A DNA stretch of 64,000 nt. Origin: Candidatus Omnitrophota bacterium (GTDB lineage Bacteria; Omnitrophota; Gorgyraeia; Zapsychrales; Fredricksoniimonadaceae). The stretch covers positions 8,951 through 72,950 of the forward strand of contig JAYTXU010000048.1 in NCBI GenBank assembly GCA_043742785.1. The letters are read 5' to 3'. Below, one piece after another: positions 5,027 through 56,181 of this stretch. How positions within the stretch are numbered: the first letter of the stretch is position 1; each line of letters starts with the position of its first letter. The notes beneath the pieces are model-generated. The model worked only from the letters and a program-made list of their open reading frames with translations. It was not told the origin of the DNA and made no database searches. Position numbers and translations under genes: made by a program.

Positions 5027-5043
5027 TTTTTCCTTTTCTTAAA

Positions 5044-5125: not shown

Positions 5126-5130
5126 ATAAA

Positions 5131-5823: not shown

Positions 5824-5835
5824 AATATTCAACCA

Positions 5836-6544: not shown

Positions 6545-6899
6545 AATAAATGATACTGGCAGTATCAGATTCCCACACCTGTACGTGCTTCAATTTCAAA
6601 GGAGCTGAAACCTTATTGAGTTCACAATAGATATGGCGAGCCAAATTCTCCGTCGAAGGATTGGTATCTTTAAACGCAGGCAAATCATTCAAGCAGACAT
6701 GATCAATAGGCATTAAAATATCCTTAAGTTTCTTTTTAACAATCTTAAAGTCAGTCAATAAACCCACTTCATCAAGCTTATCTCCTATCATCACAACTTC
6801 AATATTCCAAGTGTGTCCATGGAGATGCTTACATGGGCCATCATAACCATGCAATTGATGAGCAGAAGCAATATGGTCTCTTACAATAATTTCAAACAT
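6537..6899 (-). CDS. queD: 6-carboxy-5,6,7,8-tetrahydropterin synthase
   Basis: 120 aa with CKHLHGHTWNIEV (Cys-His-His catalytic/zinc motif). It overlaps queC by 8 nt. Confidence 0.9.
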   Translation of the reverse strand: MFEIIVRDHIASAHQLHGYDGPCKHLHGHTWNIEVVMIGDKLDEVGLLTDFKIVKKKLKDILMPIDHVCLNDLPAFKDTNPSTENLARHIYCELNKVSAPLKLKHVQVWESDTASIIYYE

Positions 6900-9570: not shown

Positions 9571-9577
9571 TAGAATA

Positions 9578-10501: not shown

Positions 10502-13500
10502 ATGCTTAAAAATAAGGGTCAATCTATTTTTGAATACACCGCTATGGCGATGCTTATCATTGTAGGCGTCATTGTCATGGGACCCTATATTACACGTTCT
10601 TTAGGTGCTCACTTTAAACTTTGGCAAGAATCTGTAGATGATTCTGTCAATGACCGTATGCAAAGCGTTCCAATCAACATCACCCCGGACTGCGTCTGCT
10701 CGGGAGATATTCAAGGTGGCTGCGGCGGCCATTTTCAACGTGAAAATAAAACCTGTGCCCCTAATGAACGTTATCACTCTACTAAATGCAGTCCCCCTGC
10801 TTGCGGATTTGGAGAAGACTTTACTGAAGGATGTACCCCAGATGTTAGTTGTTGTGAAATCTATAATGCCTGTTCTCTCACCACTCCTTTAGCTTCCTGT
10901 TGTGGAACAACACCTTTTCCTGTTCCTGCAGACCCAACAAGAACCAACCCTGATGCTCAAGGATTTCCTCCCATCCCGGGTGCTGATCCTAATTCTCCAG
11001 CAAGTTCTTGTTATTCTGGAGAAGAACTTCTTTACAATCAATGTGATACAACAATAGTCCGTTGTAAACCTAATGCTCAATGCAAGGCCATGTGTACTGG
11101 CAATCTTCCTCATAACCAAAGCGGCGATCTGACAGCAAACCTTTGTCCAGGAGCTGATCAAGGTTTAACTAAAGATACGCCCATTACACTTATAGGAGGG
11201 TGTTCTGTTCCTATATCTACTTGTCCTAAAATAACAGCGCCATCTATTAAAATTCCACAACTATTATCTAGCGGACGGGCCAATCTAACAAAAGTTGCGC
11301 CTTTTTTACTCCCCTTATGCCCAGGAGGTGATAATGGAATTTATCCCACTCAGGCTAATGCTGATCAATTTTGTAAACAGTACTTTAATGCTCCTGATGC
11401 CCAAGCTACAACTTGGCATGGATTTAATTATGATTCTTGTGGAGATAACCCACAAAAAAAAGGAAATGGATCCAGCTGGACATGCACTGTCAATGGTTGC
11501 ACACAAGTAAATAGAGTGCAGTCTATAAAGGATATAACCTGTACCTACTCCAAGTGTTCAACACCCTATACCCTCGTTACTCCCCTCTGTTCAGGGAGTG
11601 AAACAGTTTCCTGTAACAGTGGAGACTCTTTATTTGGCTCTTTAGACACAGGTACAGGGAACAATCATACCATTGCTGTTGATGGCAATACCTGTACAGC
11701 CAGTGAAGGAAATAATAATAATGGTGTCTGTGGTTGTCAAATCACCTGCTCATCTCCTTTTTTAATCACAAAGAAATCTGACTGGAAGGCTCATACCGCT
11801 GTCGGATATGCTTCATCTTATATTTATCTTTCCACACTACCTCCGCAACAATATACCGTTGCAGGACAAGCATTCTCTGTATATGATCCAATCAAGTCAT
11901 ACAGAAATGGTGGAGCCACAGCCATAACAAACCTTAATGCCAACTATCAAACCATTATCCCTTCACTACCTGAAACGCTCATAAAAAACCAAAGTGGGTC
12001 ACGCATAATATTCAATTATGCACAATTAGCTAGTGAATCTCTCGCAACACAACAAGAATTTATTAATAACCTAAAAACCGGTAGTCATGTTATTGCAAAC
12101 CGCTATCTCTGCACTACCAACACCGTAGATGCCCCCGATTGTCATGTCAATAATCGTGGAGCAGATATGCCTGCGTTTGAAATAGACGGACTTTTATATG
12201 ATACCATTCATGATAGCGATACTTATGTCCAATTCGCTGAAGCAGAAACTATAGGGCAATATACCTTATGGGTTGACGGTTGCACAACCTTTAGCACACC
12301 TGGATCAACCAACTGGACAGTTCCTGCTGGAGTAACAAATGCTACTGTTGAAGTTTGGGGCGCTGGCGGCGGTGGTGGTGGTTGGTACGGAGACATTACT
12401 AGCGGTGGTGGTGGTGGTGGTGGTGGTGGTTATTCAAAAGGAACTCTTTCTCTAACCGGCGGAACCACCTACAACATTGTAATAGGCGCTGGAGGACATG
12501 GAGGAGATGCTGTTGCGCCAAGTGATGGTGGAACCAGTTCTTTTAGCCTATCATCCCCCCTACTTCAGGCTAGCGGTGGTCACCATGGTGATTATCAAAG
12601 CTTTGCTATTGGTGATTTTCTTGGAGGTGCTGGTGGTGCAGCTAGTGTAGATAATGCTGTTAGCAATCCTTTTTCCTTATCTGGCTCTCGAGGCAATGAT
12701 GGGATATACGCATGGGGAAATGGCGGTGATGGTGGTAAGGCTGGAGGTTCTGATGGAGGTATTGGCGGAACAGGTGGGCCAGGAGGTGATTTTAATAATG
12801 TTGCTCATGGCGCATACGGTTCTGGTAGTGATGGAACAGCTCCCGGTGGCGGTGGTGGTGGCGGTGGCGGTGATGCAGACATAGGTGGATTAGGTGGCTT
12901 TGGCGCCAATGGAATGGTTAAAATTTGTCCTATTGAAACTCCTGCTCCCTGTACAAACACCTGTCCAGACTATGCTACTGACCCCACAGCGACTAAATGC
13001 GTAGCCAAATGTAACGATGGATATGAAGTAAAAACTGACCTTTCTGGTATTACTTATTGTGCTCCAAGTACTCCAAATGGATGCAATGCTACACCGATAA
13101 CAGCACTAGTGTATCTTTGCGATGACGATTATTACAGTACAGCGTCAGCTTTAGCATCCTTCGGTCATCAATGCATAAGGCCCTCTGACAACGGCGGTAC
13201 TGTGTGCACTTTTGAAGGTAGTCTTTTAGGGAAAGGTGATACAGGAGATACCTGTCCTAATCTTCATAATTTCCCTGTTCCTGTCCAAATAAATGATATC
13301 GTAACCTTAATCAATGGTCTTCAAAATGGTAAGGGAACAGTCATTTTCCGTACCATCAATACCAATATATCTTGTGATATAGCAGCAGGTGAAATTTCTA
13401 TTTCTCTTTCAAAAGGTGTTTTTTCAGGTACTACTGATAGATATAACAGCGCAACACACTCGTTTATAGCCCCATCTAATGGATATCTTATTAATTGTGC

Positions 13501-13990
13501 CTATGATGATAATATCGCAACGACCGTCACTCGCCCAGCTAACTGTAATCCTTCCATCCAATGCAATTACTCTGGAACTTATTATGGTACGATCTACTCT
13601 TCTACTTGTGTTAATAATACACTATCAATAACGTGCTTAAATAATATGGTTAAAGGTTTTTGTGTGGGCTCTTCAGGGACCAGAGGTACCGTTGCAACAG
13701 AAGACTGCACAGGATGTAATTGGTCAGGCAATCGTTACTTTAATACCGATAGGGATACTAATAATTTTACTATGAATTGTTCAAACAATGCAGTCCAAGG
13801 CTTTTGGGCTGGAGATCATCATTCAGATCCACCCGTCACAGGTTGTAACTGGTCAGGTGATCAAGTATTCAGCGATTGTGGTGATGGTAATGATATCTAC
13901 ATAACCTGTACAAACGGAACTATTACGAAAATGAATATGTCTGGGACTGGAAGAAATGGTTGTCAATGGGGTCCTGCTTATTGTGCATGA
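10502..13990 (+). CDS. giant Cys-rich surface protein with Flp/TadE-like prepilin leader, polyglycine (Gly_rich) domain and C-terminal CN[WY]SG repeats
   Basis: 1162-aa ORF. The N-terminus MLKNKG|QSIFEYTAMAMLIIVGVIVMG has Gly at -1 and Glu-Tyr at +5/+6. It has dozens of Cys and the segment WTVPAGVTNATVEVWGAGGGGGG. Confidence 0.75.
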   Translation: MLKNKGQSIFEYTAMAMLIIVGVIVMGPYITRSLGAHFKLWQESVDDSVNDRMQSVPINITPDCVCSGDIQGGCGGHFQRENKTCAPNERYHSTKCSPPACGFGEDFTEGCTPDVSCCEIYNACSLTTPLASCCGTTPFPVPADPTRTNPDAQGFPPIPGADPNSPASSCYSGEELLYNQCDTTIVRCKPNAQCKAMCTGNLPHNQSGDLTANLCPGADQGLTKDTPITLIGGCSVPISTCPKITAPSIKIPQLLSSGRANLTKVAPFLLPLCPGGDNGIYPTQANADQFCKQYFNAPDAQATTWHGFNYDSCGDNPQKKGNGSSWTCTVNGCTQVNRVQSIKDITCTYSKCSTPYTLVTPLCSGSETVSCNSGDSLFGSLDTGTGNNHTIAVDGNTCTASEGNNNNGVCGCQITCSSPFLITKKSDWKAHTAVGYASSYIYLSTLPPQQYTVAGQAFSVYDPIKSYRNGGATAITNLNANYQTIIPSLPETLIKNQSGSRIIFNYAQLASESLATQQEFINNLKTGSHVIANRYLCTTNTVDAPDCHVNNRGADMPAFEIDGLLYDTIHDSDTYVQFAEAETIGQYTLWVDGCTTFSTPGSTNWTVPAGVTNATVEVWGAGGGGGGWYGDITSGGGGGGGGGYSKGTLSLTGGTTYNIVIGAGGHGGDAVAPSDGGTSSFSLSSPLLQASGGHHGDYQSFAIGDFLGGAGGAASVDNAVSNPFSLSGSRGNDGIYAWGNGGDGGKAGGSDGGIGGTGGPGGDFNNVAHGAYGSGSDGTAPGGGGGGGGGDADIGGLGGFGANGMVKICPIETPAPCTNTCPDYATDPTATKCVAKCNDGYEVKTDLSGITYCAPSTPNGCNATPITALVYLCDDDYYSTASALASFGHQCIRPSDNGGTVCTFEGSLLGKGDTGDTCPNLHNFPVPVQINDIVTLINGLQNGKGTVIFRTINTNISCDIAAGEISISLSKGVFSGTTDRYNSATHSFIAPSNGYLINCAYDDNIATTVTRPANCNPSIQCNYSGTYYGTIYSSTCVNNTLSITCLNNMVKGFCVGSSGTRGTVATEDCTGCNWSGNRYFNTDRDTNNFTMNCSNNAVQGFWAGDHHSDPPVTGCNWSGDQVFSDCGDGNDIYITCTNGTITKMNMSGTGRNGCQWGPAYCA
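12404..12430 (+). repeat. perfect (GGT)9 microsatellite inside the giant gene (encodes Gly9)
   Basis: Nine consecutive in-frame GGT codons read directly from the sequence. Confidence 0.95.
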
Positions 13991-14000
13991 TAATTAGGAT

Positions 14001-14021
14001 AATTAGGGACAGACACTAATT
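14001..14021. repeat. left terminal inverted repeat, self-folding (AATTAG-9 nt-CTAATT)
   Basis: Exact reverse complement of 14818..14838. It overlaps the last codons of the transposase ORF. Confidence 0.9.
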
Positions 14022-14695
14022 CTAATTTCCTTTCGTGGTCGGCCTCTTTTTTTATCTTTTAAACTGTAGCCTACTTCTTGTTCTAAATCAGCTATGAAAT
14101 TTTCTGTACCGATGGGGGCACATTTCAAAACACTTCTTCTAAAGTTTTTTGTCATTTGTGGATCATCTTTTTCTAAATAGTCTTTCCAATTTTTTTCGTA
14201 AGCTAGATGTAAGATTGTATCGAAATCGGCTGTTTTTATAATGGGCTTTTTCTCCAATCCTAGATGCTCTCTGGCACTAGACCAAATATATTTACTCAAA
14301 TCGTTCACCATCCCCGCTCGCAGAGGATTCCTTTCGACATAACGGATGGCTCTTAAAAGATGAGTTTCATCCAGCACGTTAGAATAAAACCGGCCTTGCC
14401 AAAGATGACCAGTCTTTGATTGGGTACGGTTTTTATAAAGACTATATTGCATATGGACTATTTTGAATAATTGCGCTAATCCAAAAGAGGTTGTAGGGAT
14501 AACAATAAAATGAACGTGATTATCCATGAGGCAATAGGCTAGGATTCTTACATCATATTTTTGGGAGTACTCCAGCATCCAATAAGAATATTTTTTGAAA
14601 TCACGGGAATCATCAAAGACTTTCTGACGATAATTACCACGTTGAGTAACATGATGTGGAAGACCGGGAATTACTAATCGTGGCTGTCTAGGCAT
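14003..14695 (-). CDS. REP-associated tyrosine transposase (RAYT) / IS200-like Y1 HUH transposase
   Basis: 230 aa with GLPHHVTQRGN, the HUH motif DNHVHFIV, and a catalytic Tyr region AIRYVERNPLRAGM. Confidence 0.85.
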   Translation of the reverse strand: MPRQPRLVIPGLPHHVTQRGNYRQKVFDDSRDFKKYSYWMLEYSQKYDVRILAYCLMDNHVHFIVIPTTSFGLAQLFKIVHMQYSLYKNRTQSKTGHLWQGRFYSNVLDETHLLRAIRYVERNPLRAGMVNDLSKYIWSSAREHLGLEKKPIIKTADFDTILHLAYEKNWKDYLEKDDPQMTKNFRRSVLKCAPIGTENFIADLEQEVGYSLKDKKRGRPRKEIRISVCP

Positions 14696-28254: not shown

Positions 28255-28461
28255 ATGATCATGAAGGTCACAATTAACGGAACAGTAAAAGAGTTAACAA
28301 ACAGTTCTCTTCTATCCGACATCGTTACTCAATTCTGTAAAGAATCTAAACACATCATCACCGAAGTTAATGGCCAGATTATTCCATCCAACAATTGGAA
28401 GAACACAACTATTAAAAATAATGATGTGATTGAACTAGTTGCCTTTGTGGGAGGTGGCTAA
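28255..28461 (+). CDS. thiS: sulfur carrier protein ThiS
   Basis: 68 aa with a ubiquitin-like fold pattern and C-terminal VGGG. It immediately precedes thiG. Confidence 0.85.
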
Positions 28462-29249
28462 TGTCATCTTCCCCTCTAGTCATTGCTGGGAAGGAATTCA
28501 AAAGCCGTTTCTTCTTAGGTACTGGCAAATTTAAGAATAAAAAAGATCTAGCTGATTCCATTAAATCGTCAGGAACGGAAATTGTCACAGTAGCCCTTCG
28601 CCGCATTGATCTAGAGCGACACGCTGATAATATCTTAGAATACATCCCCAAACATGTCACCCTATTGACCAATACTTCAGGTGCAAGGAATGCAGAAGAA
28701 GCTGTACGCATTGCCCGTTTAGCTAAAGCCTCCGGCTGTGGCAATTGGGTGAAGATTGAAGTCATCAATGATAGCAAGTACCTACTGCCAGATAATAATG
28801 AAACAATCAAGGCGACTGAAATCTTAGCTGCCGAAGGTTTTGTCGTTCTTCCCTATATGTATCCTGATCTTTATGCGGCACGCGCATTAGTCAAAGCTGG
28901 AGCTGCAACAGTAATGCCCCTAGGAAGCCTGATTGGAAGTAATCAAGGAATGAAGACCCGTGACTTTATTAAAATACTCATCGATGAAATTGATTTACCC
29001 ATTATTGTCGATGCTGGGATCGGTACACCCTCACAAGCGGCTGAAGCTATGGAACTAGGAGCAGCTGCTGTCTTGGCTAACACAGCTGTGGCTACCGCTG
29101 GGCAGCCTGCCCTTCTTGCCAAAGCTTTTGCCCAAGCGGTCGAAGCTGGACGCATGGCTTATTTGAGTCAGTTGCCCCAACAAAAACCTTTAGCCAATGC
29201 CTCTTCCCCACTGACGGGGTTTTTGTATGATTCCCTTACAAAAAATTAA
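28461..29249 (+). CDS. thiG: thiazole synthase
   Basis: 262 aa with [35 protein letters not shown] and [28 protein letters not shown]. Confidence 0.95.
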
Positions 29250-30246
29250 CAATATCTTAAAAGAAACGCGTCCTGAAGCTCTTGAAGAATTAGCCCAGGA
29301 AGCTTCCCGTGTGACCCGTCAATATTTTGGCCGTGCCATTGGTCTCTATACGCCTTTGTATCTATCCAATTACTGCAGCAGCCATTGCACCTATTGCGGA
29401 TTTCATAGTCAAAATAAAGTTCAACGCATGAAACTTTCTCCCGAAGAGTACGTCCAAGAAATGAAAATTATTTATGATCAAGGCATTCGCAATATCCTGA
29501 TGTTGACCGGAGAATCCTATAAGCACACTCCTCTGGAATATTTAAAAGAAGCCTCCATGATTGCTGCCGAGTATTTTCAAGGAATTGCTTTGGAAGTTCA
29601 TCCCATGCAAACCGATGAATACCGTGAACTATTTACAGCAGGTGTAGATGGTATCGCTGTTTATCAAGAAACCTATGACCATAAGCGCTACGCTGAAGTT
29701 CATTTATCTGGTTTCAAAAAAGATTACGATTTCCGCCGTGGCACTCCGGCACGTGCAGCTGAAGGTGGAATAAGACAAATCTCTTTAGGCATTCTCTTAG
29801 GATTAAGCGATCCTGCTCTTGATCTATTAGCTCTCTACGAACATCTACACGAAATGGAAAAATCTTATCCAGGAGTAGAATACAGCGTCTCCTTCCCTCG
29901 CATGAGAACCATTAAAGAAAAAGAATTTGCTCAATGCGATGTAGATGATATTGCTTATACTAAAATCTTAAGCCTTACCCGCATTCTCTTTCCTCGGGTG
30001 GGAATTAATCTTTCAACGCGCGAATCATCAAAGCTGCGGGATCATCTTTTGGAAATTGCGGTTACTCGTATCTCAGCTGGTTCTAACACCTCTGTTGGCG
30101 GTTACTCTCTTCTGTCCGAAGAAGAGCAAGATCCTCAATTTGATATTAAAGATGAACGTTCGATTGCTGATATCATCTCTCTACTAAAAAACAAAAACTT
30201 CGATCCCGTCTTTACCGACTGGCGTAAAATTGAAAATATCTTATGA
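29227..30246 (+). CDS. thiH: 2-iminoacetate synthase (radical SAM tyrosine lyase)
   Basis: 339 aa with the cluster motif [15 protein letters not shown]. Position between thiG and thiF. Confidence 0.85.
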
Positions 30247-30854
30247 ATATCTTAGAACAAGGCCTTCTCAAATATCTTAAACCCGAACAGCTCTCTCTCA
30301 TTCAATCTAAGAAAATAGGTATCGGTGGGGCCGGCGGTTTGGGTTCTAACTGTGCGCTGATGCTCGTGCGTACAGGATTCAAACATTTAGAAATCATCGA
30401 TCAAGATATTGTTGATGCCTCTAATTTAAACCGTCAGCAATACTTTGCCAATGAAGTAGGCTTGGTAAAGGTGGAGGTCACTAAGAAGCGTCTTTTAGAT
30501 ATTAACCCTGATGCCACTATCATCCCCCATAAACTGCAGTGGAATGAAACTAACGCTAATCAATTCTTTAAAGGCTTTGATTTTATTGTAGAAGCATTTG
30601 ATGTGGCGGACTGGAAGTATCGTTTCGTAGAGTATTATGCCCCTCGCTTTCCTGTTGTCGTTAGTGGTGTTGGTATGGCAGGTTTAACCCAGAAGGAACC
30701 AATGACGATTAAAAAGATCGGAAATGTGTACATCTGCGGAGACCGCAGCACCAACAGCAACGACGGAAACCCACCCATGGCACCCCGTGTCACCGCCTGC
30801 GCCGCTATGATGGCTGAAGTTATTCTCGATTTAACTCTTGGGATTAAAAAATAA
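30243..30854 (+). CDS. thiF: ThiS adenylyltransferase (short ThiF/MoeB-family E1-like enzyme)
   Basis: 203 aa with the nucleotide-binding motif IGIGGAGGLGSNCALMLVRTG and DQDIVDASNLNRQ. Confidence 0.8.
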   Translation: MNILEQGLLKYLKPEQLSLIQSKKIGIGGAGGLGSNCALMLVRTGFKHLEIIDQDIVDASNLNRQQYFANEVGLVKVEVTKKRLLDINPDATIIPHKLQWNETNANQFFKGFDFIVEAFDVADWKYRFVEYYAPRFPVVVSGVGMAGLTQKEPMTIKKIGNVYICGDRSTNSNDGNPPMAPRVTACAAMMAEVILDLTLGIKK

Positions 30855-31268: not shown

Positions 31269-31967
31269 TTACTGTAAATCAAACAAAATAAATTCAGAAT
31301 CCTTATTGGATTTAATCTTCAGTGCCTTTTCATTACTGGCTGATAATCCATCTCCCGCAGTAATCTTACGGCCATTAATATCCACTTCCCCTTTTATCAT
31401 CTGCACCCAGACATGACGATTAGGACGAATAGAAAAATCTAAATCCTGTGAAGATTTTAATTTTCCAATATACATATCCGCATCCTGATTAATGCCTATC
31501 GATCCCTGACGATGATCCTTCGATGCCACTAAAACAAAGTTCTTATTCTTAAAATCTTCTTTAAATGATTTCTGGCCATATTGAGGAGATATGGCTTTCT
31601 TCTCTGTTAAAATCCAAATCTGAAGCAAATGTGTTTCTTGATCTTTGAAATGATTAAACTCTGAATGCTCCACACCACTGCCAGCACTCATATGCTGAAC
31701 TTCATCTGGTAAAATAACCGCCGTGTTGCCCATAGAATCTTTATGCTCTAAGGCGCCGCTCACCACATAGGTAATGATTTCCATATCCTTGTGAGGATGG
31801 GTACCAAAGCCCATACCGCCTGCAACGAAATCTTCATTAATGACCCTGAGCGTACTAAAGGACATATGCTTTAGATCATAATACTCTGCAAAAGAAAATG
31901 TATGGAAGGATTTTAACCATCCATGATCAACAAAACCTCTATCCTTGGATTTTCGTATGCTTAACAT
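31269..31967 (-). CDS. pirin-family bicupin protein
   Basis: 232 aa with the metal-site motif GFGTHPHKDMEIITYVVSGALEHKDSMGN. Confidence 0.9.
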   Translation of the reverse strand: MLSIRKSKDRGFVDHGWLKSFHTFSFAEYYDLKHMSFSTLRVINEDFVAGGMGFGTHPHKDMEIITYVVSGALEHKDSMGNTAVILPDEVQHMSAGSGVEHSEFNHFKDQETHLLQIWILTEKKAISPQYGQKSFKEDFKNKNFVLVASKDHRQGSIGINQDADMYIGKLKSSQDLDFSIRPNRHVWVQMIKGEVDINGRKITAGDGLSASNEKALKIKSNKDSEFILFDLQ

Positions 31968-31970
31968 TCT

Positions 31971-34900
31971 TTACTCCTTGATTCCCTGTCCACCCACTGC
32001 TTTAATAAGATTCACCGCAGCAATTAATCTCTGACTTTGAGACTCAATCACTTGAAGTTGCGATTCCAAACGGGAACGCTCGGCATCCACCACATCAATA
32101 AAACTCACCAAACCCTGACGGTAACGCTCATAGGACATATTCTTAGTCGATAAAGCTGAATCAAAAAGCCTCTTTTGAGCTTGATAGCCTTCTTTACGCA
32201 TCTGAACATCCACAAGAGCATTCTCCACTTCTTCAAACGCCTTTAAAATTGTCTGACTATATTCAGCTAGTGTCTTCTCATATTCTGCTCGAGCTGCATT
32301 AAGCCTAGCCTGATTACCTCCTGCATTAAACAAGGGCACAACAATGCTGGGACCTACCGTCCACATTCCGCTGGCAGATTGAAAGAGTTTAGCGGCATCC
32401 ATGCTTTGAAATCCAGCCGCTGCATTCAAGGTGATCGATGGAAAGAAATCAGCTTTAGCCATTCCCACCTTCGCATTGGCAGACGCCATTAAATCTTCAG
32501 ACTCAGCAACATCAGGACGATTACGTAGAATATCTGAAGGAATTCCTGCATCTAACAAAGGAACTTTTAGATTTTCAATAATAACTTCACCTACATGAAA
32601 ACCTGTTGCAGGCTCTCCGCATAATAAAGACAAAGCATTTTCTGCACGAGCACGCAAACGCTTAGCATCAATAATTTGAGTTTCCACGCGAGCAACTTCT
32701 GTGTTTGCTTGAGATAAATCTAATTGACTAGATAATCCAGCGCTTACGCGTTGCTGTAAAATCTTAACGACTTCTTTACGAAGATTGACCGTTTCATTAA
32801 GCGCTTTAATTTGAGCATCTAATTGACCAATTAAAAAATACTGATTCGCCACATCACTATTTAAAGTGAGAAGCACCGTATCATAAGCATACTTCTTTGC
32901 AAAAGCTTCATAACGTCCTGATTCAAAAAACCTGCGAACCTTACCCCATAGATCAATTTCATAACTAAAATCTAAAGGAATAGTAAATTGATTTGTTGTT
33001 CGACTTTTACTAAACACAGAGGTTGAATTCTTACTCGTACGACTGCGTTTAGCTGAAGGATTAAAACCAGCTGTTGGGTACAAATCTGCTTCTGCTATCC
33101 TTGCCACCGCACGAGCTTTATCAACTGCACTCATAGCTGCTTTTAAATCTTGATTGTTAGTTAAAGCCCTCTGTTCTAAATCATTAAGCTTTTCATCACT
33201 AAAAATCTTCCACCATTGAACAGTTAAATGAGAAAAATCCTCCTTAATGGGACTCTTCCACTTAGAAGGCATATCCATCTTAGGACGAGAATAATCTTTG
33301 CTCACTGCACATCCATTACATAAAACTCCGCAAAAGACAATGACTAATATGGAAGGAACCACTTTAGAACAACTTTTAAACATCTTACTAAACCACACAT
33401 AAACAATAGGAATAACAAATAACGTTAAAAAAGTAGATGTAATCATCCCTCCCACAGCGGCAACCCCCATAGGCCGACGAGCTTCCCCGCCTGCTCCAAA
33501 TCCAATAGCAATAGGCAATATCCCCGCAACCGTTGCACAGGCCGTCATTAAAATAGGACGTAACCGAATTGCCCCCGCAGCCTTCATAGCCTCTGTAGCA
33601 TCTTTACCTTTTGCGATTTGTTGATTAGCAAAATCCACCAACATAATGGCATTCTTTGTAACTATCCCAAAAAGTAAAATAATTCCAATTTGGCTATAAA
33701 GATTAACTCCCATAGAAGGAAGTTTAAATAATGAGCAAACAAAAAGAGAGCCAAATGCGCCAAAGGCAGCCAAAGGAAGAGTTATCATAACCGTGATAGG
33801 ATGGATAAGACTTTCAAACTGCATCGCTAAAACCATATAAACAATCAATAGAGCTAAAATTAAAACAAAATAAATGCCCTGAGAAGATTCGATAAGCTCC
33901 TTAGCTTCCCCTTTCCATTCATAATGAAAACCAGAAGGAAGATCTTTCTTTAATATTTCTTCAACCTTAGTAATCGCTGTTCCTATGGGCATTCCCATAG
34001 GAGTTCCTTCGATCACAGCGCTTCGAAAACGATTGTAATGATTAATAGCTGAAGGTCCCGCACCTGTTTCATAGGTTAATAAATTACTTAACTGCACCAA
34101 CTCTCCCTTATTATTACGAATAAAAAGAATATCTAAATCTTTGGGTAAAAGACGTTGTTGGCGGAGTAATTGAGCTATGACATCATATTGTTTTCCATCA
34201 ATATTCACCTTGCTAATATCAAGACCACCGAAAGCTATTTGCAAAGTCTTGGCAATATCCCCCACAGAAACCCCTAATTGCGCTGCACGCTCACGATCAA
34301 CAGACAGACGTAATTCTGGTTTATTAAGTTCGAAATTAGACCGTACATTAATCAAAAATCCTGCCGCACGCAATTTATTAACAAGACTTGCCGCATAGTT
34401 ATTAAGCTTAATTAAATCCTGAGACTGAAGGACTAATTCAAATGGCTGAGTAAAACCACCACCAAAAGATTTAGGCATAATGGGAATTGCAAAAGCCCCT
34501 TGCACTTGCGTAAATAATTGAGCCCCAACTCCCTTTGCACCACCGATAATGTCACGTAAATTACGCTTACGATCATCCTTTAAACGAATAAAAGCTAGTC
34601 CTTGAGCAGGATTTCCTGGAGAGCCGCCCCTTGACAAAGCAACTGCAGAGAAATATTCTTGGGTTTCTGGAATCTTAGAAACAACTCCTTCTAATTTCTT
34701 AACCATACGATCTGTATATTCACTGGTCGATCCAACCGGAGCCAAAGCAAAAACCAAGAAACGCCCCTTATCCTCCAAGGGAACAAATTCATGATCTAAA
34801 CTAAAATAAAAAAATACAGAAGCTAGAACAGAAGCGGTAGCAATTATAGAAATAATCAACGGGTGACGTAAGGCCCAAGCTAAATGCCTTGCATACGTCT

Positions 34901-36440
34901 TATCCAAAGCAGCAAAAAATCTTTCAAAGGCTGCTAAGATTCCCTTATGCTTATGATCATCATGAATCGGTTTTACAATACGTGCCGTTAAAGTAGGTGT
35001 TAAGGTCAAAGCTACAAAAGCTGAAATTAATACAGAAAAAGAAATCGCCACTGCAAATTCAATAAAAAAACGTCCCGTAACACTTGTTTGAAAAGCCATT
35101 GGCATAAACACACAAATCAAGGTTAAGGTGGTTGCAATAACAACAAAGCCAATTTCGCGCATCCCTTGAATAGCAGCCTCCATAGGCTTCATTCCATCTT
35201 CGATATGCCGATAAATATTTTCTAAAACAATAATCGCATCATCAACAACAAGACCAATGGCTAAAATCAACCCCAACATTGTTACAATATTAATAGAGAA
35301 TCCAAACCCATAAAGCACCCCAAAGGTGGCAATGATGGATACAGGAATAACAATGGCAGGAACAAAAGTGGAACGTATATTACGTAGGAAAATAAAAATT
35401 GTTAATACAACCAATAAAAAAGCAATCCCCAATGTTTCCCATACTTCAACAATTGATTTCTTAACGTAAATAGATTCATCATAAGGAAAAGACGTAACAA
35501 CTCCCTGTGGTAAAGAAGGTGCGATACGGGCAACTTCCTTCTTGATTCCCTCAACAACCGCAATTGTATTAGCCTTGGATTGTTTAATAACTCCAATCCC
35601 AAGAGCAGGCTTCGAATTAAAACGAGCGACCGAATGTTCATCTTCAACACCAATAACAGCTTGACCAATATCACTAAAACGAATAACCATACTGCCGACT
35701 CTTTTGATTACCAAGTTATTATATTCTTGAGGAGTTTTCATCTGTCCTTTTGTTTCAATAGATAAAGACCGATCTAAACTCTCTGCCGACCCACTTGGTA
35801 ATTCAATATTTTCTCGCTTTAAAACATTATCAATATCTAAGACACTAACTCCCCGACTTGCCATCTTCTGCGCATCTAAACGCAGACGAATAGCAAAGCG
35901 TTTCTGACCTCCAAAAATAACTGAACTAACCCCCTGAACAGTTTGTAGACGATCCTTGAATAAATCTTCTGCCATCTTAGTTAATTGAAGCGTTGAGTAA
36001 CGATCTGAATATAAGGCTACCCAAAGAATAGGTGAAGCATCGGCTTCCTGCTTGGCTACAATAGGCTCTTCAATATCTTTAGGAAGTTTTCCCCTTACAC
36101 GAGATACACGATCCCTCACATCTTGAGCGACCACTTCAATAGGACGACTTAAATTGAATTCAATAGTAATTGAACTCACTTGCTCGCGCGATTCACTGGT
36201 AATAGTGCGGATACCATCAATACTCATCATCTCTGCTTCAATGAGTTCAGAAACTTGTGTTTCCATAACAGCCGCAGAGGCTCCTTGATAAACCGTCTGC
36301 ACATTAATAATAGGAGGATCAATATCTGGAAGTTCACGAACTGGAAGGCGATTTAAACCAATAATGCCAACGACCACTAAGCCCAAACTCATCATGCTGG
36401 CAAAGATAGGACGTCTTATTGAGAATTCTGAAATCTTCAT
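31971..36440 (-). CDS. fused RND efflux permease (aa 1-1019) and NodT/OprM-type outer-membrane factor lipoprotein (aa 1020-1489)
   Basis: Single uninterrupted 1489-aa frame. The AcrB-like N-terminus is MKISEFSIRRPIFASMM. The junction is VWFSK-MFKSCSKVVPSILVIVFCGVLCNGC-AVSKDYSRPKMDMPSKW, and OMF-type coiled repeats follow. Confidence 0.85.
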   Translation of the reverse strand: MKISEFSIRRPIFASMMSLGLVVVGIIGLNRLPVRELPDIDPPIINVQTVYQGASAAVMETQVSELIEAEMMSIDGIRTITSESREQVSSITIEFNLSRPIEVVAQDVRDRVSRVRGKLPKDIEEPIVAKQEADASPILWVALYSDRYSTLQLTKMAEDLFKDRLQTVQGVSSVIFGGQKRFAIRLRLDAQKMASRGVSVLDIDNVLKRENIELPSGSAESLDRSLSIETKGQMKTPQEYNNLVIKRVGSMVIRFSDIGQAVIGVEDEHSVARFNSKPALGIGVIKQSKANTIAVVEGIKKEVARIAPSLPQGVVTSFPYDESIYVKKSIVEVWETLGIAFLLVVLTIFIFLRNIRSTFVPAIVIPVSIIATFGVLYGFGFSINIVTMLGLILAIGLVVDDAIIVLENIYRHIEDGMKPMEAAIQGMREIGFVVIATTLTLICVFMPMAFQTSVTGRFFIEFAVAISFSVLISAFVALTLTPTLTARIVKPIHDDHKHKGILAAFERFFAALDKTYARHLAWALRHPLIISIIATASVLASVFFYFSLDHEFVPLEDKGRFLVFALAPVGSTSEYTDRMVKKLEGVVSKIPETQEYFSAVALSRGGSPGNPAQGLAFIRLKDDRKRNLRDIIGGAKGVGAQLFTQVQGAFAIPIMPKSFGGGFTQPFELVLQSQDLIKLNNYAASLVNKLRAAGFLINVRSNFELNKPELRLSVDRERAAQLGVSVGDIAKTLQIAFGGLDISKVNIDGKQYDVIAQLLRQQRLLPKDLDILFIRNNKGELVQLSNLLTYETGAGPSAINHYNRFRSAVIEGTPMGMPIGTAITKVEEILKKDLPSGFHYEWKGEAKELIESSQGIYFVLILALLIVYMVLAMQFESLIHPITVMITLPLAAFGAFGSLFVCSLFKLPSMGVNLYSQIGIILLFGIVTKNAIMLVDFANQQIAKGKDATEAMKAAGAIRLRPILMTACATVAGILPIAIGFGAGGEARRPMGVAAVGGMITSTFLTLFVIPIVYVWFSKMFKSCSKVVPSILVIVFCGVLCNGCAVSKDYSRPKMDMPSKWKSPIKEDFSHLTVQWWKIFSDEKLNDLEQRALTNNQDLKAAMSAVDKARAVARIAEADLYPTAGFNPSAKRSRTSKNSTSVFSKSRTTNQFTIPLDFSYEIDLWGKVRRFFESGRYEAFAKKYAYDTVLLTLNSDVANQYFLIGQLDAQIKALNETVNLRKEVVKILQQRVSAGLSSQLDLSQANTEVARVETQIIDAKRLRARAENALSLLCGEPATGFHVGEVIIENLKVPLLDAGIPSDILRNRPDVAESEDLMASANAKVGMAKADFFPSITLNAAAGFQSMDAAKLFQSASGMWTVGPSIVVPLFNAGGNQARLNAARAEYEKTLAEYSQTILKAFEEVENALVDVQMRKEGYQAQKRLFDSALSTKNMSYERYRQGLVSFIDVVDAERSRLESQLQVIESQSQRLIAAVNLIKAVGGQGIKE

Positions 36441-37513
36441 TTATTGTTCTCTGGTTTCTTTTCTTTACCATCATCTGGAGGTGTCACCATGACTAGAGCT
36501 CCTGGCCCAATCTTCTGGTAACCTTCAGTAATAACTGTATCCCCTTCACTTAACCCTGAAATAATCTCAACTTGTCCTGCCTGTCTTAAACCAACCTTCA
36601 CTAAAACCATCTGAGCTTTACTATCTTTATCCGCTGTGAAAACAAAGACTTCCTCTGCTTTAGGTATCAACGCTGTTTCAGGGATCATTAACGCTTGAGG
36701 CTTACGATCAACAACTAAATCCAGTTGAGCAAACATACCCCGACGAAGCTTAGAATCAGGATTGACCACCTTCGCTTTAACTAGAAATGTACGGGAAGAT
36801 TCATCAACTTGAGGATCAATAAAATAAACCTCTCCTTTAAAAACCTCTTTAGGATAGGCTGCTACAACAAGCTCTACTTCCTGCTCCTTAGCAACACGGG
36901 ACATATACCGTTCTGGAATATGGAAATCCACCTTCATCGGGTTTTCATCAATTATTACAGTTAGAAGTTTATCTTTACCAATCACCTGTCCTAAGCTAAC
37001 TTGACGCTCCCCGATAACACCATCAAAAGGAGCTGTAATCACAGTATCCGTCAACTGCGCTGCAATCAAATCCACTTGAGCTTTCTTTCCAGCAAGATCA
37101 GATTGAGCCTGATCAAACTCCTGCTTAGAAACAGCTCCTTGATCAACTAAAGATTTCATACGATTAAAAGTTGATTGAGCAATATCTAAATTTGCTTTAG
37201 CTTGAGCAGAGGTCGCCTCTAATTTTTCACGATCTAAAACAAGAAGAGTATCTCCTTTAGTAATTTTCTGTCCTTCCTCAAAATGTATTTCTGTGACCTT
37301 ACTCTCTATCTGACTTTTAACTTCCACCGATTCATTAGCCGCTAAAGACCCCACCACAGAAACTTTCTCAGATATTTCTTGAGGAGTAACCTTGACTCCA
37401 ACCACAGGAGTAGGAAAACCTCCCATAGGTTTACCAGAAGATTGACCTTTGGATGAATTAGAGCATCCATAAAACATAACGATTACTACTAAACTTAGAA
37501 CAAATATTCTCAT
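36437..37513 (-). CDS. RND efflux periplasmic adaptor (membrane fusion protein), lipoprotein
   Basis: Start moved to MRIFVLSLVVIVMFYGC (GAGGA Shine-Dalgarno). It has the coiled-coil hairpin and beta-barrel pattern of the AcrA/HlyD family and a 4-nt overlap with the RND gene. Confidence 0.85.
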   Translation of the reverse strand: MRIFVLSLVVIVMFYGCSNSSKGQSSGKPMGGFPTPVVGVKVTPQEISEKVSVVGSLAANESVEVKSQIESKVTEIHFEEGQKITKGDTLLVLDREKLEATSAQAKANLDIAQSTFNRMKSLVDQGAVSKQEFDQAQSDLAGKKAQVDLIAAQLTDTVITAPFDGVIGERQVSLGQVIGKDKLLTVIIDENPMKVDFHIPERYMSRVAKEQEVELVVAAYPKEVFKGEVYFIDPQVDESSRTFLVKAKVVNPDSKLRRGMFAQLDLVVDRKPQALMIPETALIPKAEEVFVFTADKDSKAQMVLVKVGLRQAGQVEIISGLSEGDTVITEGYQKIGPGALVMVTPPDDGKEKKPENNK

Positions 37514-37520: not shown

Positions 37521-38009
37521 CTATCTTTTTTTATTCGTTGCAGAAGCAACGATTAGTTTCTGTTGAATATCCAATACATTGACATAGATCTTACATAAAA
37601 CATTCATACATAATTTCATATCCTGAGCGCTAATGCCTGCTTCTGCCTGTTCTAAGGTTTTCTCAACAATGATCATTAGTTTTTTCTGTAAGATTTTTCC
37701 TTTATTGGTCAGGTAAATAAATTTCTGGCGCTTATCTTGCTTGTCTGGAATACGCACCACCAAATCTCGCTTTTCCATACCATCAATCAGACGAGCCATG
37801 CTTGTTTTATCCTTGCAGGAATTTTGAGCTAAATCCTGTTGCGTTTGACCATTTTTCTGGACTAAATTAAATAACACAGACCATTGCTCACAAGTCACAT
37901 CAAATCCACTAATAGCCATATTACGGTTAAGTAAACCGCCAACCGAACGTGCGGCGCGACCAATAATATAACCTAGAGAATCTTCTAAGATGAATTTTTG
38001 TTTAGACAT
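37521..38009 (-). CDS. MarR-family transcriptional regulator
   Basis: 162 aa with a winged HTH (QTQQDLAQNSCKDKTSMARLIDGMEKRDLVVRIPD). It is the first gene of the efflux operon. Confidence 0.85.
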   Translation of the reverse strand: MSKQKFILEDSLGYIIGRAARSVGGLLNRNMAISGFDVTCEQWSVLFNLVQKNGQTQQDLAQNSCKDKTSMARLIDGMEKRDLVVRIPDKQDKRQKFIYLTNKGKILQKKLMIIVEKTLEQAEAGISAQDMKLCMNVLCKIYVNVLDIQQKLIVASATNKKR

Positions 38010-41003: not shown

Positions 41004-42014
41004 TTATGAAGATGGAGGGGCGCAAGATTCGCGGACGATTAAATCAGGTTCAAGCACTTTACGTACAAGGCCCTCTTGTTTGCCTTGCATAATGTTATTA
41101 ATAATTCGCACCGATTCCTCGCCCATGGCAAACAAAGGTTGTTTGATGGTTGTCAACGCTACAGAACCAAAAAGACCGGCAGGATTGTCATCGAAGCCAA
41201 TAACAGAGATATCTTCTGGAACCTTAATACCGTTTTCATTAGCCACTGAAATAATTTCTAAAGCCATATCATCACTTGCTGCAAAAATAGCCGTGGGAGG
41301 GTTGTCTAAGGAAAAAAAATGCAGCGCTGCATCACGGGCAGAACGTCTAGAATAATCCCCTTTAAAAAAATATTCTGGTTCAAACTCGATGCCTTGTTTC
41401 ATCAAAGTTTTTTGAAAACCTTCATATCGATCCATCCCTGCTTGCGTTTGCATATTACCAGTAACAGTAGCAATACGCTTGTGGCCCAAGGTAATTAAAT
41501 ATTCGGCCGCCATCATCCCACCTTTAACATTATCAACAGCCAAATAACTAACATCTAAATCTTTAACCAAATGATTAATAACCAAAGCAGGAATTCCATC
41601 CGCTAGTGCATCTTCCACTTGAGAACGATTTTCAATAATATCTGCAAAAATAAGCCCTCCTGAATAACTAGAACGTAGAGGATTTTTACCATCTGTAATA
41701 TGAAAAACTAAATCTAAACGCAACGTCTCACAACCATGACCAATGCCGCGCATCAATTCAACCGCATAAAACGAATGAAATACTCCAGGGAAACCAGGAA
41801 TAACAAAACCAACAGCCGTCCCCATCCCCCCTCTAGCTAAACGCTGAGCAGTAGGATTAGGTCTAAATTTTAACGCAACAATAGCTTCTTCGACTCTAAT
41901 GGCTATTTGTTTATCTACGGTAAGAACTTTATTAATAACGCGGGAAACTGTAGTAATAGATACATTTGCTTTTCTAGCTACATCTGTAATACTAACTTTT
42001 TTAAGTGATTTCAT
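41004..42014 (-). CDS. LacI-family transcriptional regulator
   Basis: 336 aa with the N-terminal HTH ITDVARKANVSITTVSRVIN and a periplasmic-binding-protein-like sugar domain. ATGA overlap with the upstream gene. Confidence 0.9.
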   Translation of the reverse strand: MKSLKKVSITDVARKANVSITTVSRVINKVLTVDKQIAIRVEEAIVALKFRPNPTAQRLARGGMGTAVGFVIPGFPGVFHSFYAVELMRGIGHGCETLRLDLVFHITDGKNPLRSSYSGGLIFADIIENRSQVEDALADGIPALVINHLVKDLDVSYLAVDNVKGGMMAAEYLITLGHKRIATVTGNMQTQAGMDRYEGFQKTLMKQGIEFEPEYFFKGDYSRRSARDAALHFFSLDNPPTAIFAASDDMALEIISVANENGIKVPEDISVIGFDDNPAGLFGSVALTTIKQPLFAMGEESVRIINNIMQGKQEGLVRKVLEPDLIVRESCAPPSS

Positions 42015-43399
42015 CTAACCTGATCACCAACCTGTAAATTGGTCTTTTGATCCTTAATATCAGCTGCAGAAATCTCATGACGAACCTGAATAACTTCAAG
42101 CGTAGCAATCTCTTTATTGTTACGATATACTTTTAAAACCCGTCCAATCATACTCCCTTGGATCTCGCCATAATCAACAATAACAAAATTATTCTTTGAA
42201 TTAATGCTTATGATTTTATGATCTGTTTCTTGAATTTCAGGTGAAGAAGTTATCGATGACTTTTCTGTGACAGGCATAAGTGTGGAAGAAACGCTCCCAC
42301 TGTTTCCATTAACAACTATAGGAGGAAGCTCCACTTCTTTATCAGACTTGGCTTGATTAATTTGTCCTATCTTTTGATCAAGAGTTTGCTTAATCTGCCA
42401 AATTTCATTAATACGATCCTGAATAACACCTTCAGTATCTGCAAGACGTCTACCCATATCATTCTTTTCTTGAGTCAAGCGTGCTGTTGTTTTTTCTAAA
42501 GCAACCTTTGTTGACGACAATTGCTTAATTTCCGATTGCATCTGAGCATTGTCCCCTTTAATCTTAGAGCCAAAATCATTAGCAAATTTCTGATCCCCTC
42601 TTGCACGAGCAGCTTCCATTGATAAATTGCTAGCTAAATTTTCTCCATCTCTAATCTTGCGCTGTAATTCTTGCTTCTCACGAGAATAATTATCTTGCAA
42701 TTGTTTTTTCTCGTTAGTAAGACGACGTTCAATATCAACCTTATCATTGTTTAAATCTTTTATCTGTAACTGTAATTCAGAATTTTGTTTTCTTAAATCA
42801 GCAACCTGCAAAGCAGTACTATCTAAATCCGCCATAGCTTTATCTAACTCAACTTGTAATTGAGATTTTTGTTTTAGCACCTTAGCCCAATACTCATCCC
42901 CTTCAGGATTGCCCACTACAAGATTAGATTGATCTGAGTTTCCATCGACATCAGCCGTTTTATCTTTATTAACAACTTTCTCAGGCGGATGTTGTAATTT
43001 CTCCATCAGAGTATCTCTCTCTTTACGAATAGTCTCTAAACGAGATTTCCAATCATCACGATCTTTATTAGCTTGATCAAGCTGACCCTGATAATCTGAT
43101 TCTTTAGATTTCAGTTCATCTATCGAGCCTTGTAATAGTTCTTTTTCTTTTTCTTTAGTTGATAAACGCTTGTTAGTATTTGAGTTCTCTTCTTGTAGTT
43201 TTTGAACTTGTTGTTGAAGGCTTTTGGATTCGGCGAGAGCTTTTTCTTGTTTGGATTTGGTATCTATAAGCTCATCTTGTAAGCTTTGATTCTGTTTAGT
43301 TAAACTCTGATTATTTAATGCAAGTAAAACAGCACCGCCAGCAATAGCAACTAAAATAACCGACAGAACTATTATACTGCGTTGAATTGCTTGGGACAT
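42011..43399 (-). CDS. membrane-anchored long coiled-coil protein with small C-terminal beta-barrel-like domain
   Basis: Start moved to the ATG preceded by GGAGG. It has an N-terminal TM (IIVLSVILVAIAGGAVLLAL), about 330 aa of heptad-like Q/E/K-rich sequence, and a C-terminal NFVIVDYGEIQGSMIGRVLKVYR...LQVGDQV. Confidence 0.6.
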   Translation of the reverse strand: MSQAIQRSIIVLSVILVAIAGGAVLLALNNQSLTKQNQSLQDELIDTKSKQEKALAESKSLQQQVQKLQEENSNTNKRLSTKEKEKELLQGSIDELKSKESDYQGQLDQANKDRDDWKSRLETIRKERDTLMEKLQHPPEKVVNKDKTADVDGNSDQSNLVVGNPEGDEYWAKVLKQKSQLQVELDKAMADLDSTALQVADLRKQNSELQLQIKDLNNDKVDIERRLTNEKKQLQDNYSREKQELQRKIRDGENLASNLSMEAARARGDQKFANDFGSKIKGDNAQMQSEIKQLSSTKVALEKTTARLTQEKNDMGRRLADTEGVIQDRINEIWQIKQTLDQKIGQINQAKSDKEVELPPIVVNGNSGSVSSTLMPVTEKSSITSSPEIQETDHKIISINSKNNFVIVDYGEIQGSMIGRVLKVYRNNKEIATLEVIQVRHEISAADIKDQKTNLQVGDQVR

Positions 43400-43485
43400 A
43401 ACTTCCTCCAAAAAGGTATTTAATTAATACGAATATAACAAAGGGGAAGAAGCAACACAAGCAATTTTATTGATATTTCACAAGA

Positions 43486-44088
43486 TTATTCAAAATGAAC
43501 ATCATCGAGGAAGAAAACACATGAATTTGGATTAGCATCCACATTAGCAGCCCAAGCAAAACCTCCGCTGATTAAAGATAAGTCTTTGTCACGCAAGTCG
43601 ATAGAATATTCTTTCCATTCTTTAGAAAGAATCACAGGACCAATAGCTGCTGTATCTGAATCAGGATACTCGCGATTATAGCCTATCCCACCCATTTTAA
43701 ATTCAGATACTTGCTCGCCGCCTTTTTCTCCTTTGGCCCAAAAAACTAATTTTTTTGCTCCGATTAAATTATAACCACCCTTCTTATCCCCCCAATTATC
43801 AGGAGGATTAAGCCAATAAATACCAGCCCAACGGCGACTCTTAGCGGAACAAGCTACATCATAAATAACTTTAATACAGGTTTTACCTTCCTGACAATCT
43901 TGCTGCCAACCATCATCCATCTTAAGACACTCACCTGTTGGCATGTAACCTGATGGTGTATAACGATTATGGGAGTGTTTATCCTGATAAACAATAAACT
44001 TCGGAAAAGGCTTACTTGGGCCATTTTGAGCCCGAGCTAACGATGAAAATATAACAAAACTAAGAAGAATAAAACAAAAAATTTTCAT
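43486..44088 (-). CDS. secreted protein, possible carbohydrate-binding beta-sandwich
   Basis: 200 aa with a signal peptide (SSLARA|QN). The Trp/Gly-rich pattern WAGIYWLNPPDNWGD...LVFWAKGEKGG...EWKEYSIDL is reminiscent of CBM-like modules. Weak call. Confidence 0.45.
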   Translation of the reverse strand: MKIFCFILLSFVIFSSLARAQNGPSKPFPKFIVYQDKHSHNRYTPSGYMPTGECLKMDDGWQQDCQEGKTCIKVIYDVACSAKSRRWAGIYWLNPPDNWGDKKGGYNLIGAKKLVFWAKGEKGGEQVSEFKMGGIGYNREYPDSDTAAIGPVILSKEWKEYSIDLRDKDLSLISGGFAWAANVDANPNSCVFFLDDVHFE

Positions 44089-55518: not shown

Positions 55519-56163
55519 TCATCGTTGTAATTCCACCAATTCTACAACAAGCTTTTCTAGCGCATGCTCTGGCAATAAACGGCTGCGTTTAATATTTAAA
55601 TCAGCTTCTTCTAAAGCTTTTAATCCTTTTTCAAACTTTAAAGCTCCCAAAACTCTTCCCTCTTTACCCCAATACCAAACCAAAGCTCCCATCATCTGTA
55701 ATGGGAACATTCCTTGATTATAAAACTCATGCATTATCTTCAAAGCTTCCGTTGTTTTCTTAAGAGACATGAACTTCGTCATATCAAAAATATTAAGCTG
55801 CGTCTTAACACCAAAAGTAAAAACCTTAACATGAAAAACAATCTCTTTTAGAGGGCTTTTAAGTTCACCAGTAGACTCTAAGATCACTTCACAATAATCA
55901 GCAGGAGAAACAGCAAAAGATACAAGCAAGAGAGCTGGGTCATTTTTTAGTTTCTCGACATGACGAATTAAAACGACTCTCTTGGAAGAAAAAGATGGTA
56001 GTGCTAATAATGATTTCTTAAGGCTGGTGGACGTTAAATACTGTGCATCTAACGATTCGAAATCAAAGAAAAGAGCCTCTGGCTGAGTTAATACTGCTGA
56101 TTTAAGTTCAAATATTTTTTTATCTTTTGTGAGAGGATCCTCACCTAGAAGAAGATAAACCAT
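55519..56163 (-). CDS. holA: DNA polymerase III delta subunit (compact HolA-like)
   Basis: 214 aa with an N-terminal YLLLGEDPLTKDK typical of HolA. The conserved position downstream of lptE supports the call. It is shorter than the usual ~330 aa. Confidence 0.55.
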   Translation of the reverse strand: MVYLLLGEDPLTKDKKIFELKSAVLTQPEALFFDFESLDAQYLTSTSLKKSLLALPSFSSKRVVLIRHVEKLKNDPALLLVSFAVSPADYCEVILESTGELKSPLKEIVFHVKVFTFGVKTQLNIFDMTKFMSLKKTTEALKIMHEFYNQGMFPLQMMGALVWYWGKEGRVLGALKFEKGLKALEEADLNIKRSRLLPEHALEKLVVELVELQR

Positions 56164-56181
56164 AAAAACCCTTCAATGGTT

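Follow-up and report, generated by a model that had tools for sequence, protein, structure and literature searches.

The 64,000-nucleotide stretch of DNA analysed here (hereafter the window) comes from a Candidatus Omnitrophota bacterium (assembly GCA_043742785.1, contig JAYTXU010000048.1) and carries a single gene that encodes both the resistance-nodulation-division (RND) inner-membrane pump and the outer-membrane factor, or exit duct, of a tripartite efflux system. In textbook lipoprotein biogenesis the signal is taken to be N-terminal, and every pump component to have a cistron of its own. The segment that joins the two halves of this protein resembles a lipoprotein signal and begins 1019 residues into the chain, a departure from the N-terminal position of usual lipoprotein signals. 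Sequence comparisons suggest, with a probability of roughly 80%, that pump and duct are made from the fused gene as a polyprotein precursor and would be released from each other by Lgt and Lsp at the internal lipobox. The pump itself is an ordinary MarR-regulated tripartite RND system, and its biogenesis is the unusual part.

The gene occupies positions 31971-36440 on the minus strand as a single ATG-started open reading frame (ORF) of 1489 amino acids, the translation of which contains no internal stop. An RND permease (residues 1-1019) is followed by a signal-like segment of 24 residues (1020-1043) and by a NodT-family outer-membrane factor that starts at Cys1044. The Pfam family ACR_tran (PF00873) matches residues 3-1017 with model positions 1-1020 of 1021 (957 bits), and two OEP repeats follow it in the fused protein. 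The NCBIfam model NF033617 (RND_permease_2) scores 980 bits across residues 5-1018; since this lies under its strict naming cut-off of 1250, the permease half is a divergent member of the subfamily. This half aligns over its full length with solved MexB, AcrB and MdtB chains, and its translation contains the proton-relay motifs GLVVDDAIIV (Asp-Asp of transmembrane helix 4, TM4), VTKNAI (Lys of TM10) and IRLRPILMT (Arg of TM11), which we take, from a match by eye, to correspond to D407/D408, K940 and R971 of AcrB. The protein departs from the HAE-1 RND trait of 12 helices and a short cytoplasmic tail, in that 470 more residues follow TM12.

These additional residues make up a complete duct. TIGR01845 (outer_NodT) of NCBIfam matches residues 1037-1484 with 384 bits (cut-off 210), and comparison with the Protein Data Bank (PDB) gives OprM and CusC, both at 3e-62. 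In the TolC/OprM fold, each protomer contributes four beta-strands and long helical hairpins. Residues 960-1489 were modelled with AlphaFold2 (mean predicted local distance difference test score, pLDDT, 80; duct helices mostly ≥90); the model contains a fold of this type, and in Foldseek the modelled protomer matched CusC (TM-score 0.86, 2e-27) and OprM (0.81, 9e-27), both scores being normalised to the target. An earlier note, made from the letters of the window, had described one 1489-residue ORF for an RND pump and an outer-membrane factor, joined by a lipoprotein-signal-like segment that leads into a NodT/OprM-family N-terminus, with the internal ATG at 33383-33381 and the Cys codon at 33311-33309. 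Translation, the Pfam and NCBIfam searches and the lipobox alignment bear out this description, both positions included. The features of the locus are collected in the table.

Features of the fused pump-duct gene and of its operon (feature, positions in the window, strand, basis of the assignment)
MarR-family regulator, first gene of the operon	37521..38009	(-)	Pfam MarR, 8e-13
Periplasmic adaptor (membrane fusion protein), lipoprotein	36437..37513	(-)	TIGR01730 RND_mfp, 272 bits (cut-off 95)
RND permease domain, residues 1-1019, 12 TM helices, NF033617 / MdtB-MdtC-like subfamily	33384..36440	(-)	ACR_tran, NF033617
Internal lipoprotein signal (putative), residues 1020-1043	33312..33383	(-)	Alignment with other fusions and with an unfused homologue
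Cys1044 codon (TGT), predicted diacylglyceryl-modified +1 residue	33309..33311	(-)	Conservation, PDB alignment
Mature NodT-family outer-membrane factor (predicted), residues 1044-1489 and stop	31971..33311	(-)	TIGR01845, OprM/CusC matches
Pirin-like gene, 3 nt 3' of the fused gene	31269..31967	(-)	Pfam Pirin, Pirin_C_2

The junction reads ...IPIVYVWFSK-M(1020)FKSCSK-VVPSILVIVFCGVLCNG-C(1044)AVSKDYSRPKMDMPSKW. S1018 and K1019 form, together with the start of the signal, the positively charged loop SKMFKSCSK (K1019, K1022 and K1026), and this is followed by a 17-residue uncharged run (VVPSILVIVFCGVLCNG) that ends in the lipobox C-N-G|C. A search of 5.8 billion proteins, of which the best 120 matches were considered, yielded 84 full-length fusions (the query and 83 others; 1398-1562 amino acids, 45-81% identity), and all of them entered the junction alignment. 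Seventy-two, the window's protein included, form class 1, in which the linker runs from a Lys/Arg-rich stretch after TM12 (mean net charge +4.4) through an uncharged run and a lipobox to the Cys and the NodT motif (G)PxYxRP...W. The linker of the window aligns with the n-region, h-region and L-x-G-C of the other 71. The lipobox is mostly L-[STNA]-G-C, with LSGC, LTGC, LNGC and LAGC as the commonest forms. Its Cys is invariant in class 1 (72/72; column C85) and is also present in distant fusions; elsewhere the linker differs in both sequence and length, and the frame is always kept.

Signals of 103 homologous ducts that stand alone served for comparison. They and the fused signals have an equal lipobox spectrum, and in both sets position +2 is A, S or T and never Asp. 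The uncharged run has a mean of 15.3 residues in class 1 versus 13.6 in the stand-alone ducts, in a comparison that ignores kinship. Cys1044, which is residue 25 from Met1020, aligns with mature residue 1 of CusC (3pik), OprN (5iuy), OprJ (5azs) and MtrE (4mt0), and the title of PDB entry 4y1k names palmitoylated OprM. MKSILMSFMVFLFLTGC, the N-terminal signal of an unfused duct from an Omnitrophica metagenome-assembled genome (L002), can be aligned with the internal signal of the window as well. By every sequence criterion, the fused linker is a lipoprotein signal, indistinguishable in kind from those of stand-alone ducts, and the Lsp cut is predicted between Gly1043 and Cys1044. In the AlphaFold2 model, a TM12 helix (986-1023) is followed by a second helix (1028-1041, with a modest pLDDT of 56-73), and a coil then leads through the lipobox to the duct protomer.

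A second kind of junction provides a comparison within the same family. Twelve of the 84 fusions, as well as P0180 from the HMMER search described below, have no junction Cys, and the best model for the C-terminal halves of these Cys-less fusions is that of TolC (TIGR01844), not NodT. Ducts of the TolC type are not lipoproteins. Their junction consists of an Arg-rich stretch, a hydrophobic stretch, an AxA-like site and acidic residues (for example, ARA|ED, AQA|AE, ASA|EE and AKA|ES in P0090, P0180 and others), and the AxA-like site is putatively of the signal-peptidase-I type. The type of signal thus co-varies with the cargo, NodT-type ducts being fused with a lipobox and TolC-type ducts with AxA. 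Fusion has left each kind of duct with the kind of signal proper to it, as is expected of working cleavage sites, and the TolC-type fusions would be the signal-peptidase-I counterpart of the lipobox fusions. They (P0080-P0118 and P0180; loci L004-L006, gene L004:6001-10581) are found in the same MarR-adaptor-fusion operon, and one member is on contigs of up to 4.39 Mb.

The fusion of an RND pump with an outer-membrane factor is real and old. The fused homologues derive from NCBI, JGI, ENA and Logan assemblies, and the named ones are mostly from Candidatus Omnitrophica/Omnitrophota. In a scan of genome collections, which lacked the window's own genome, the closest relative was 81% identical (L007). 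Residues 800-1489, used as the query of HMMER without filters against 1.84 billion cluster representatives, retrieved at least 17 further full-length fused representatives (27-46% identity) and about nine truncated proteins that span the junction. The most distant (27-33% identity) are from Acidobacteriota/Bryobacteraceae, Muribaculaceae, Sphingobacterium and Kiritimatiellota; among them are those of Sphingobacterium sp. SYP-B4668 (RefSeq WP_270090608.1) and of Kiritimatiellota bacterium B12222 (WFB35000.1), the latter on a complete 4.43-Mb chromosome. In the Kiritimatiellota genome and in a Sphingobacterium-like contig, the fused gene lies directly 3' of an adaptor gene, and no separate duct gene was found near the fused gene in either. 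Distant fusions of the lipobox type from Acidobacteriota (P0125), Kiritimatiellota (P0159) and Sphingobacterium (P0185) belong to the RND subfamily NF000282, not to NF033617. The occurrence of fusions in these two RND subfamilies implies that fusion arose more than once.

The breadth of this distribution also decides whether the missing stop codon could be an artefact. The earlier note had considered that a sequencing or assembly error removed the stop between two ordinary genes; the assembly is of the metagenome type, and unfused relatives exist that are one frame shift away, with an 8-nt overlap of the two genes. However, the identical protein is present on an independently built Logan contig (run SRR22198267), unrelated samples and assemblers have yielded more than 80 distinct fused homologues, fusions are found in RefSeq and in a complete isolate genome, and linkers of differing length are all in frame. 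An error of sequencing, assembly or frame is refuted by so many independent homologues, and the chance that we assign to it is negligible. When the same fusion was sought in relatives, it was found in many, a complete genome included, and the relatives are not all of the two-gene form. Labels of the metagenome-assembled genomes concerned, and with them that of the window, warrant caution: NCBI describes L007-L013 and L015 variously as 'uncultured Planctomycetales', 'Candidatus Omnitrophota' and 'Actinomycetes bacterium', so Omnitrophota / PVC group is only a loose placement. At five other loci, from Variovorax, Zoogloeaceae and Xenophilus (L036, L037, L045, L048 and L055), tblastn aligned query residues 1-1484 across about 5.8 kb, which is too long for a fusion; at these loci the RND and duct genes are probably separate, and some other sequence lies between.

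Combined, the junction signal and the conserved frame suggest the following order of events for the polyprotein. The RND permease would be inserted co-translationally, leaving the end of TM12 in the cytoplasm. Because the C-terminus of TM12 is cytoplasmic by homology to AcrB and MexB, the charged loop and the hydrophobic segment would be oriented N-in/C-out. The Lys-rich loop and the uncharged segment, formerly the signal peptide of the duct, would then act as an N-in/C-out start-transfer signal and drive SecYEG export of the 446-residue duct, as TM1 and TM7 do for the two large periplasmic loops of the pump. Cys1044 would receive diacylglycerol from Lgt, and Lsp (signal peptidase II) would cut between Gly1043 and Cys1044. 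The freed duct lipoprotein would be N-acylated, sorted to the outer membrane and trimerised into the exit duct. The signal segment is predicted to be retained by the pump after cleavage, as a permanent 13th TM helix. Synthesis of pump and duct would be equimolar, matching the 3:3 ratio of the two trimers, and the adaptor alone would have a cistron of its own. The option of the earlier note that signal peptidase II cuts at an internal signal and so releases the duct gains support from the invariant Cys of class 1, its alignment with residue 1 of mature ducts in the PDB and the replacement of the lipobox by AxA in the TolC-type fusions.

The continuous and conserved ORF, and the packing of the segment as a helix after TM12 in the AlphaFold2 model, would also agree with a fusion that is never cleaved, in which a single chain crosses both membranes and the 13th helix tethers the duct to the pump. 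Given the geometry of AcrAB-TolC and MexAB-OprM, tens of residues would be needed to reach the duct from the inner membrane. The (G)PxYxRP motif that opens the duct fold lies only about 3-5 residues from Cys1044, and the equivalent Cys of solved homologues is the lipidated N-terminal anchor in the outer membrane. Furthermore, the pairing of an invariant Cys and a Gly at -1, and its replacement by AxA in the TolC-type fusions, are signatures of a cleavage site and not of a tether. On the length of the linker and these signatures, the uncleaved two-membrane chain was rejected as very improbable.

Several observations weigh against release of the duct by Lgt and Lsp. For every member of the family, cleavage, lipidation and localisation are predictions from sequence. 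Position -3 of the window's lipobox is Cys, which is atypical in comparison with the Leu or Phe of relatives. None of lgt, lspA, lnt and lol was found by Pfam in the 64-kb window (six small ORFs left out). How many times fusion or fission has occurred is uncertain, since the tree discussed below was made by neighbour joining from a limited sample. Conservation of the Cys cannot by itself tell cleavage from internal initiation, and the window does contain an in-frame ATG (Met1020, 33383-33381) and GTG (Val1027) ahead of the hydrophobic stretch, so that some duct protein could arise from internal initiation in this genome.

In its strongest form, the latter explanation says that the duct is made mainly from Met1020 or Val1027 as a normal prolipoprotein, and that the read-through fusion is a tolerated by-product. 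The two candidate starts lie seven codons apart, both 5' of the uncharged stretch and with Lys residues after them, and the split relatives have overlapping, translationally coupled genes. The earlier note had pointed out that no Shine-Dalgarno sequence precedes the internal ATG. This is correct, but uninformative either way: calculated pairing with the anti-Shine-Dalgarno sequence is -2.7 kcal/mol at the junction, and gene starts in the window (median -2.9) barely differ from internal ATGs (-2.4). The weak use of Shine-Dalgarno sequences in this genome means that their absence is no argument against an internal start. What distinguishes the two explanations is that start codons are not conserved. 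Met is absent from the charged stretch in 61 of the 72 class-1 fusions, and Met, Val and Leu are all absent in nine. Moreover, the DNA of the charged stretch has no in-frame ATG, GTG or TTG in L007, the relative of 81% identity, or in L008, L010 and L012. Without a stop codon, the full-length chain arises anyway and needs handling, and the frame has been held through insertions and deletions in the linker over 27-81% identity. Internal initiation, which the earlier note had offered as an alternative, is thus possible in the window and not conserved across the family; as the main source of the duct it seems unlikely, and processing of the polyprotein at the lipobox is preferred.

Unfused relatives show how such a gene could have originated. 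In L002 (GCA_020632515.1), a MarR-MFP-RND operon (MFP, membrane fusion protein) is followed by a separate duct gene. The RND protein, about 60% identical to that of the window, is 1040 amino acids long and ends in ...VYVLLNKRKRKNK before its stop codon; the duct gene lies 17 nt further on, and the N-terminus of the duct is MKSILMSFMVFLFLTGC|ALVGDDYTRPEVRLPKNW. In L015, the two genes share 8 nt (ATGCATAA), from the ATG of the duct gene, which is in the +1 frame, to the stop of the RND gene. The split ducts have the signals FLFLTGC|A (L002) and SLSLPGC|L (L015), each followed by GxxYxRP...W, and the split RND proteins end in short charged tails that have no hydrophobic segment. From an arrangement like that of L015, insertion or deletion of a single base would suffice to fuse the two genes, so fusion would be one step from the usual neighbouring or overlapping RND and outer-membrane factor genes. 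We propose that, because the duct signal still works when internal, such a fusion is tolerated and may become fixed. In a rough neighbour-joining tree of the RND part, one large clade that includes the window is all fused, and in several mixed clades split and fused forms stand side by side, which suggests repeated fusion or fission.

The order of genes around the fusion is that of a regulated efflux operon; MarR-MFP-RND is common to the unfused relative L002 and the TolC-type fusion L004. The stop codon of the adaptor gene overlaps the start of the fused gene by 4 nt. The adaptor has a canonical N-terminal lipobox (MRIFVLSLVVIVMFYGC|SNSS), and its true start is likely the ATG at 37513 rather than the TTG at 37549; the program-listed ORF from this TTG would overlap marR by 29 nt. 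Two sites, both recognised by consensus match only, precede marR: a promoter-like TTGACA-17-TAAACT (38069-38041) and a terminator-like hairpin of the preceding gene (38113-38086). No terminator-like site was seen between the fused gene and the Pirin-like gene, which is possibly co-transcribed with it; the proposed explanation does not need this.

Elsewhere in the window, five ORFs other than the fused one have N-terminal lipoboxes: LptE (LSGC|G), the adaptor (FYGC|S), an amidase, a solute-binding protein and a DUF3332 protein. Genes for a BamD/YfiO-like TPR lipoprotein, LptE and a DNA polymerase III delta-like protein stand in a row at 55519-57653 (-). The lipobox ORFs, LptE and the adaptor among them, and the BamD-like gene indicate that the organism makes lipoproteins, outer-membrane ones included, and BamD/YfiO-like protein and LptE, as markers of outer-membrane biogenesis, indicate that it is a diderm. 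Adjoining the lipoprotein amidase gene (7782-8819) is a 267-aa ORF (8821-9624, -) with only the C-terminal part of a secretin domain.

Other features of the window are as follows. An IS200-like Y1 transposase ORF (14003-14695, -) lies beside a 1162-aa ORF (10502-13990, +), the sole Pfam match of which is a glycine-rich domain. Pfam gave no match at E ≤ 1e-5 for two adjacent ORFs of 466 and 200 aa (42011-44088, -), which have a LacI-type regulator on one side and a TPR protein on the other. A compact cluster for queuosine precursors (QueF-like, radical-SAM, QueC and PTPS/QueD-like proteins) and a thiamine cluster (ThiG, radical-SAM/BATS and ThiF-like proteins) are also present (4622-6899, -, and 28461-30854, +).

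The earlier note knew of no described RND-outer-membrane factor fusion. The literature fits this statement, yet the architecture is common in sequence databases: no description of a natural fusion of this kind, or of a natural internal lipobox, was found in literature searches, in which subscription journals were thinly covered. It is likely that these proteins are the first natural, widely conserved polyproteins in which Lgt and Lsp act on an internal signal after a 12-helix transporter, the signal being kept as a 13th helix. If so, Lgt and Lsp can recognise their site in vivo where it follows a large polytopic protein, pump and duct are inherently synthesised 1:1, and RND pumps with 13 helices exist, which is relevant to structural work. 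AcrZ and YajC are single-helix partners of AcrB. The 13th helix, slightly longer than stand-alone signals, might have gained a role of its own, for example like theirs. There are also consequences for annotation. Databases name the fused proteins as an RND permease or as an outer-membrane subunit, and since the genes are named after one half, genomes appear to lack the other component; signal-peptide predictors scan N-termini only, so the fused lipoprotein is missed. Because Sphingobacterium sp. SYP-B4668 and Kiritimatiellota bacterium B12222 are cultured carriers, the question of processing is directly testable.

Fusions within the RND superfamily and other pumps have been described, for example SecDF of Thermus thermophilus and the nucleotide-binding domain-permease fusion MacB, in a 2021 review of tripartite pumps (PMC8277102), the consulted parts of which make no mention of a transporter-outer-membrane factor fusion. 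As in the window, these proteins join partners of fixed stoichiometry, but the partners share the same membrane and are uncleaved. The canonical systems MexAB-OprM, AcrAB-TolC, CusCBA and MdtABC have the same three components, with the order regulator, adaptor, RND and outer-membrane factor as here, and AcrA and MexA are lipoprotein adaptors like that of the window. In contrast to these tripartite operons, the RND and outer-membrane factor regions of the window follow each other with no stop or start between them, the signal of the duct is internal, and the pump would end in an extra helix. L002 and L015 have the same MarR-MFP-RND-outer-membrane factor operon and the same kind of signal, but in two genes.

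Two precedents come closest to the proposed processing, the first experimental and the second natural. According to its title, a 1985 report by Hayashi et al. in J Biol Chem found that internalised prolipoprotein signals are modified and processed. As here, those constructs would place a lipoprotein signal inside a longer chain, but they were artificial and had soluble N-terminal extensions; the case of the window is natural and conserved, and its extension is a 1019-residue, 12-helix transporter. FbcH of Bradyrhizobium japonicum is reportedly a cytochrome b-c1 polyprotein that is cleaved at an internal signal (work attributed to Thony-Meyer and colleagues, around 1989-1991). There, the fusion is said to join a polytopic inner-membrane protein, the C-terminus of which is cytoplasmic, to a periplasm-facing partner through the retained signal of that partner, and the two are said to be separated after translocation. 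The site in FbcH is reportedly of the signal-peptidase-I type and both products stay in the inner membrane, whereas in the window the site is a lipobox and the duct would leave for the outer membrane. Among the fusions described here, those of the TolC type (P0090 and its relatives) are a closer analogue of FbcH than the lipobox ones are.

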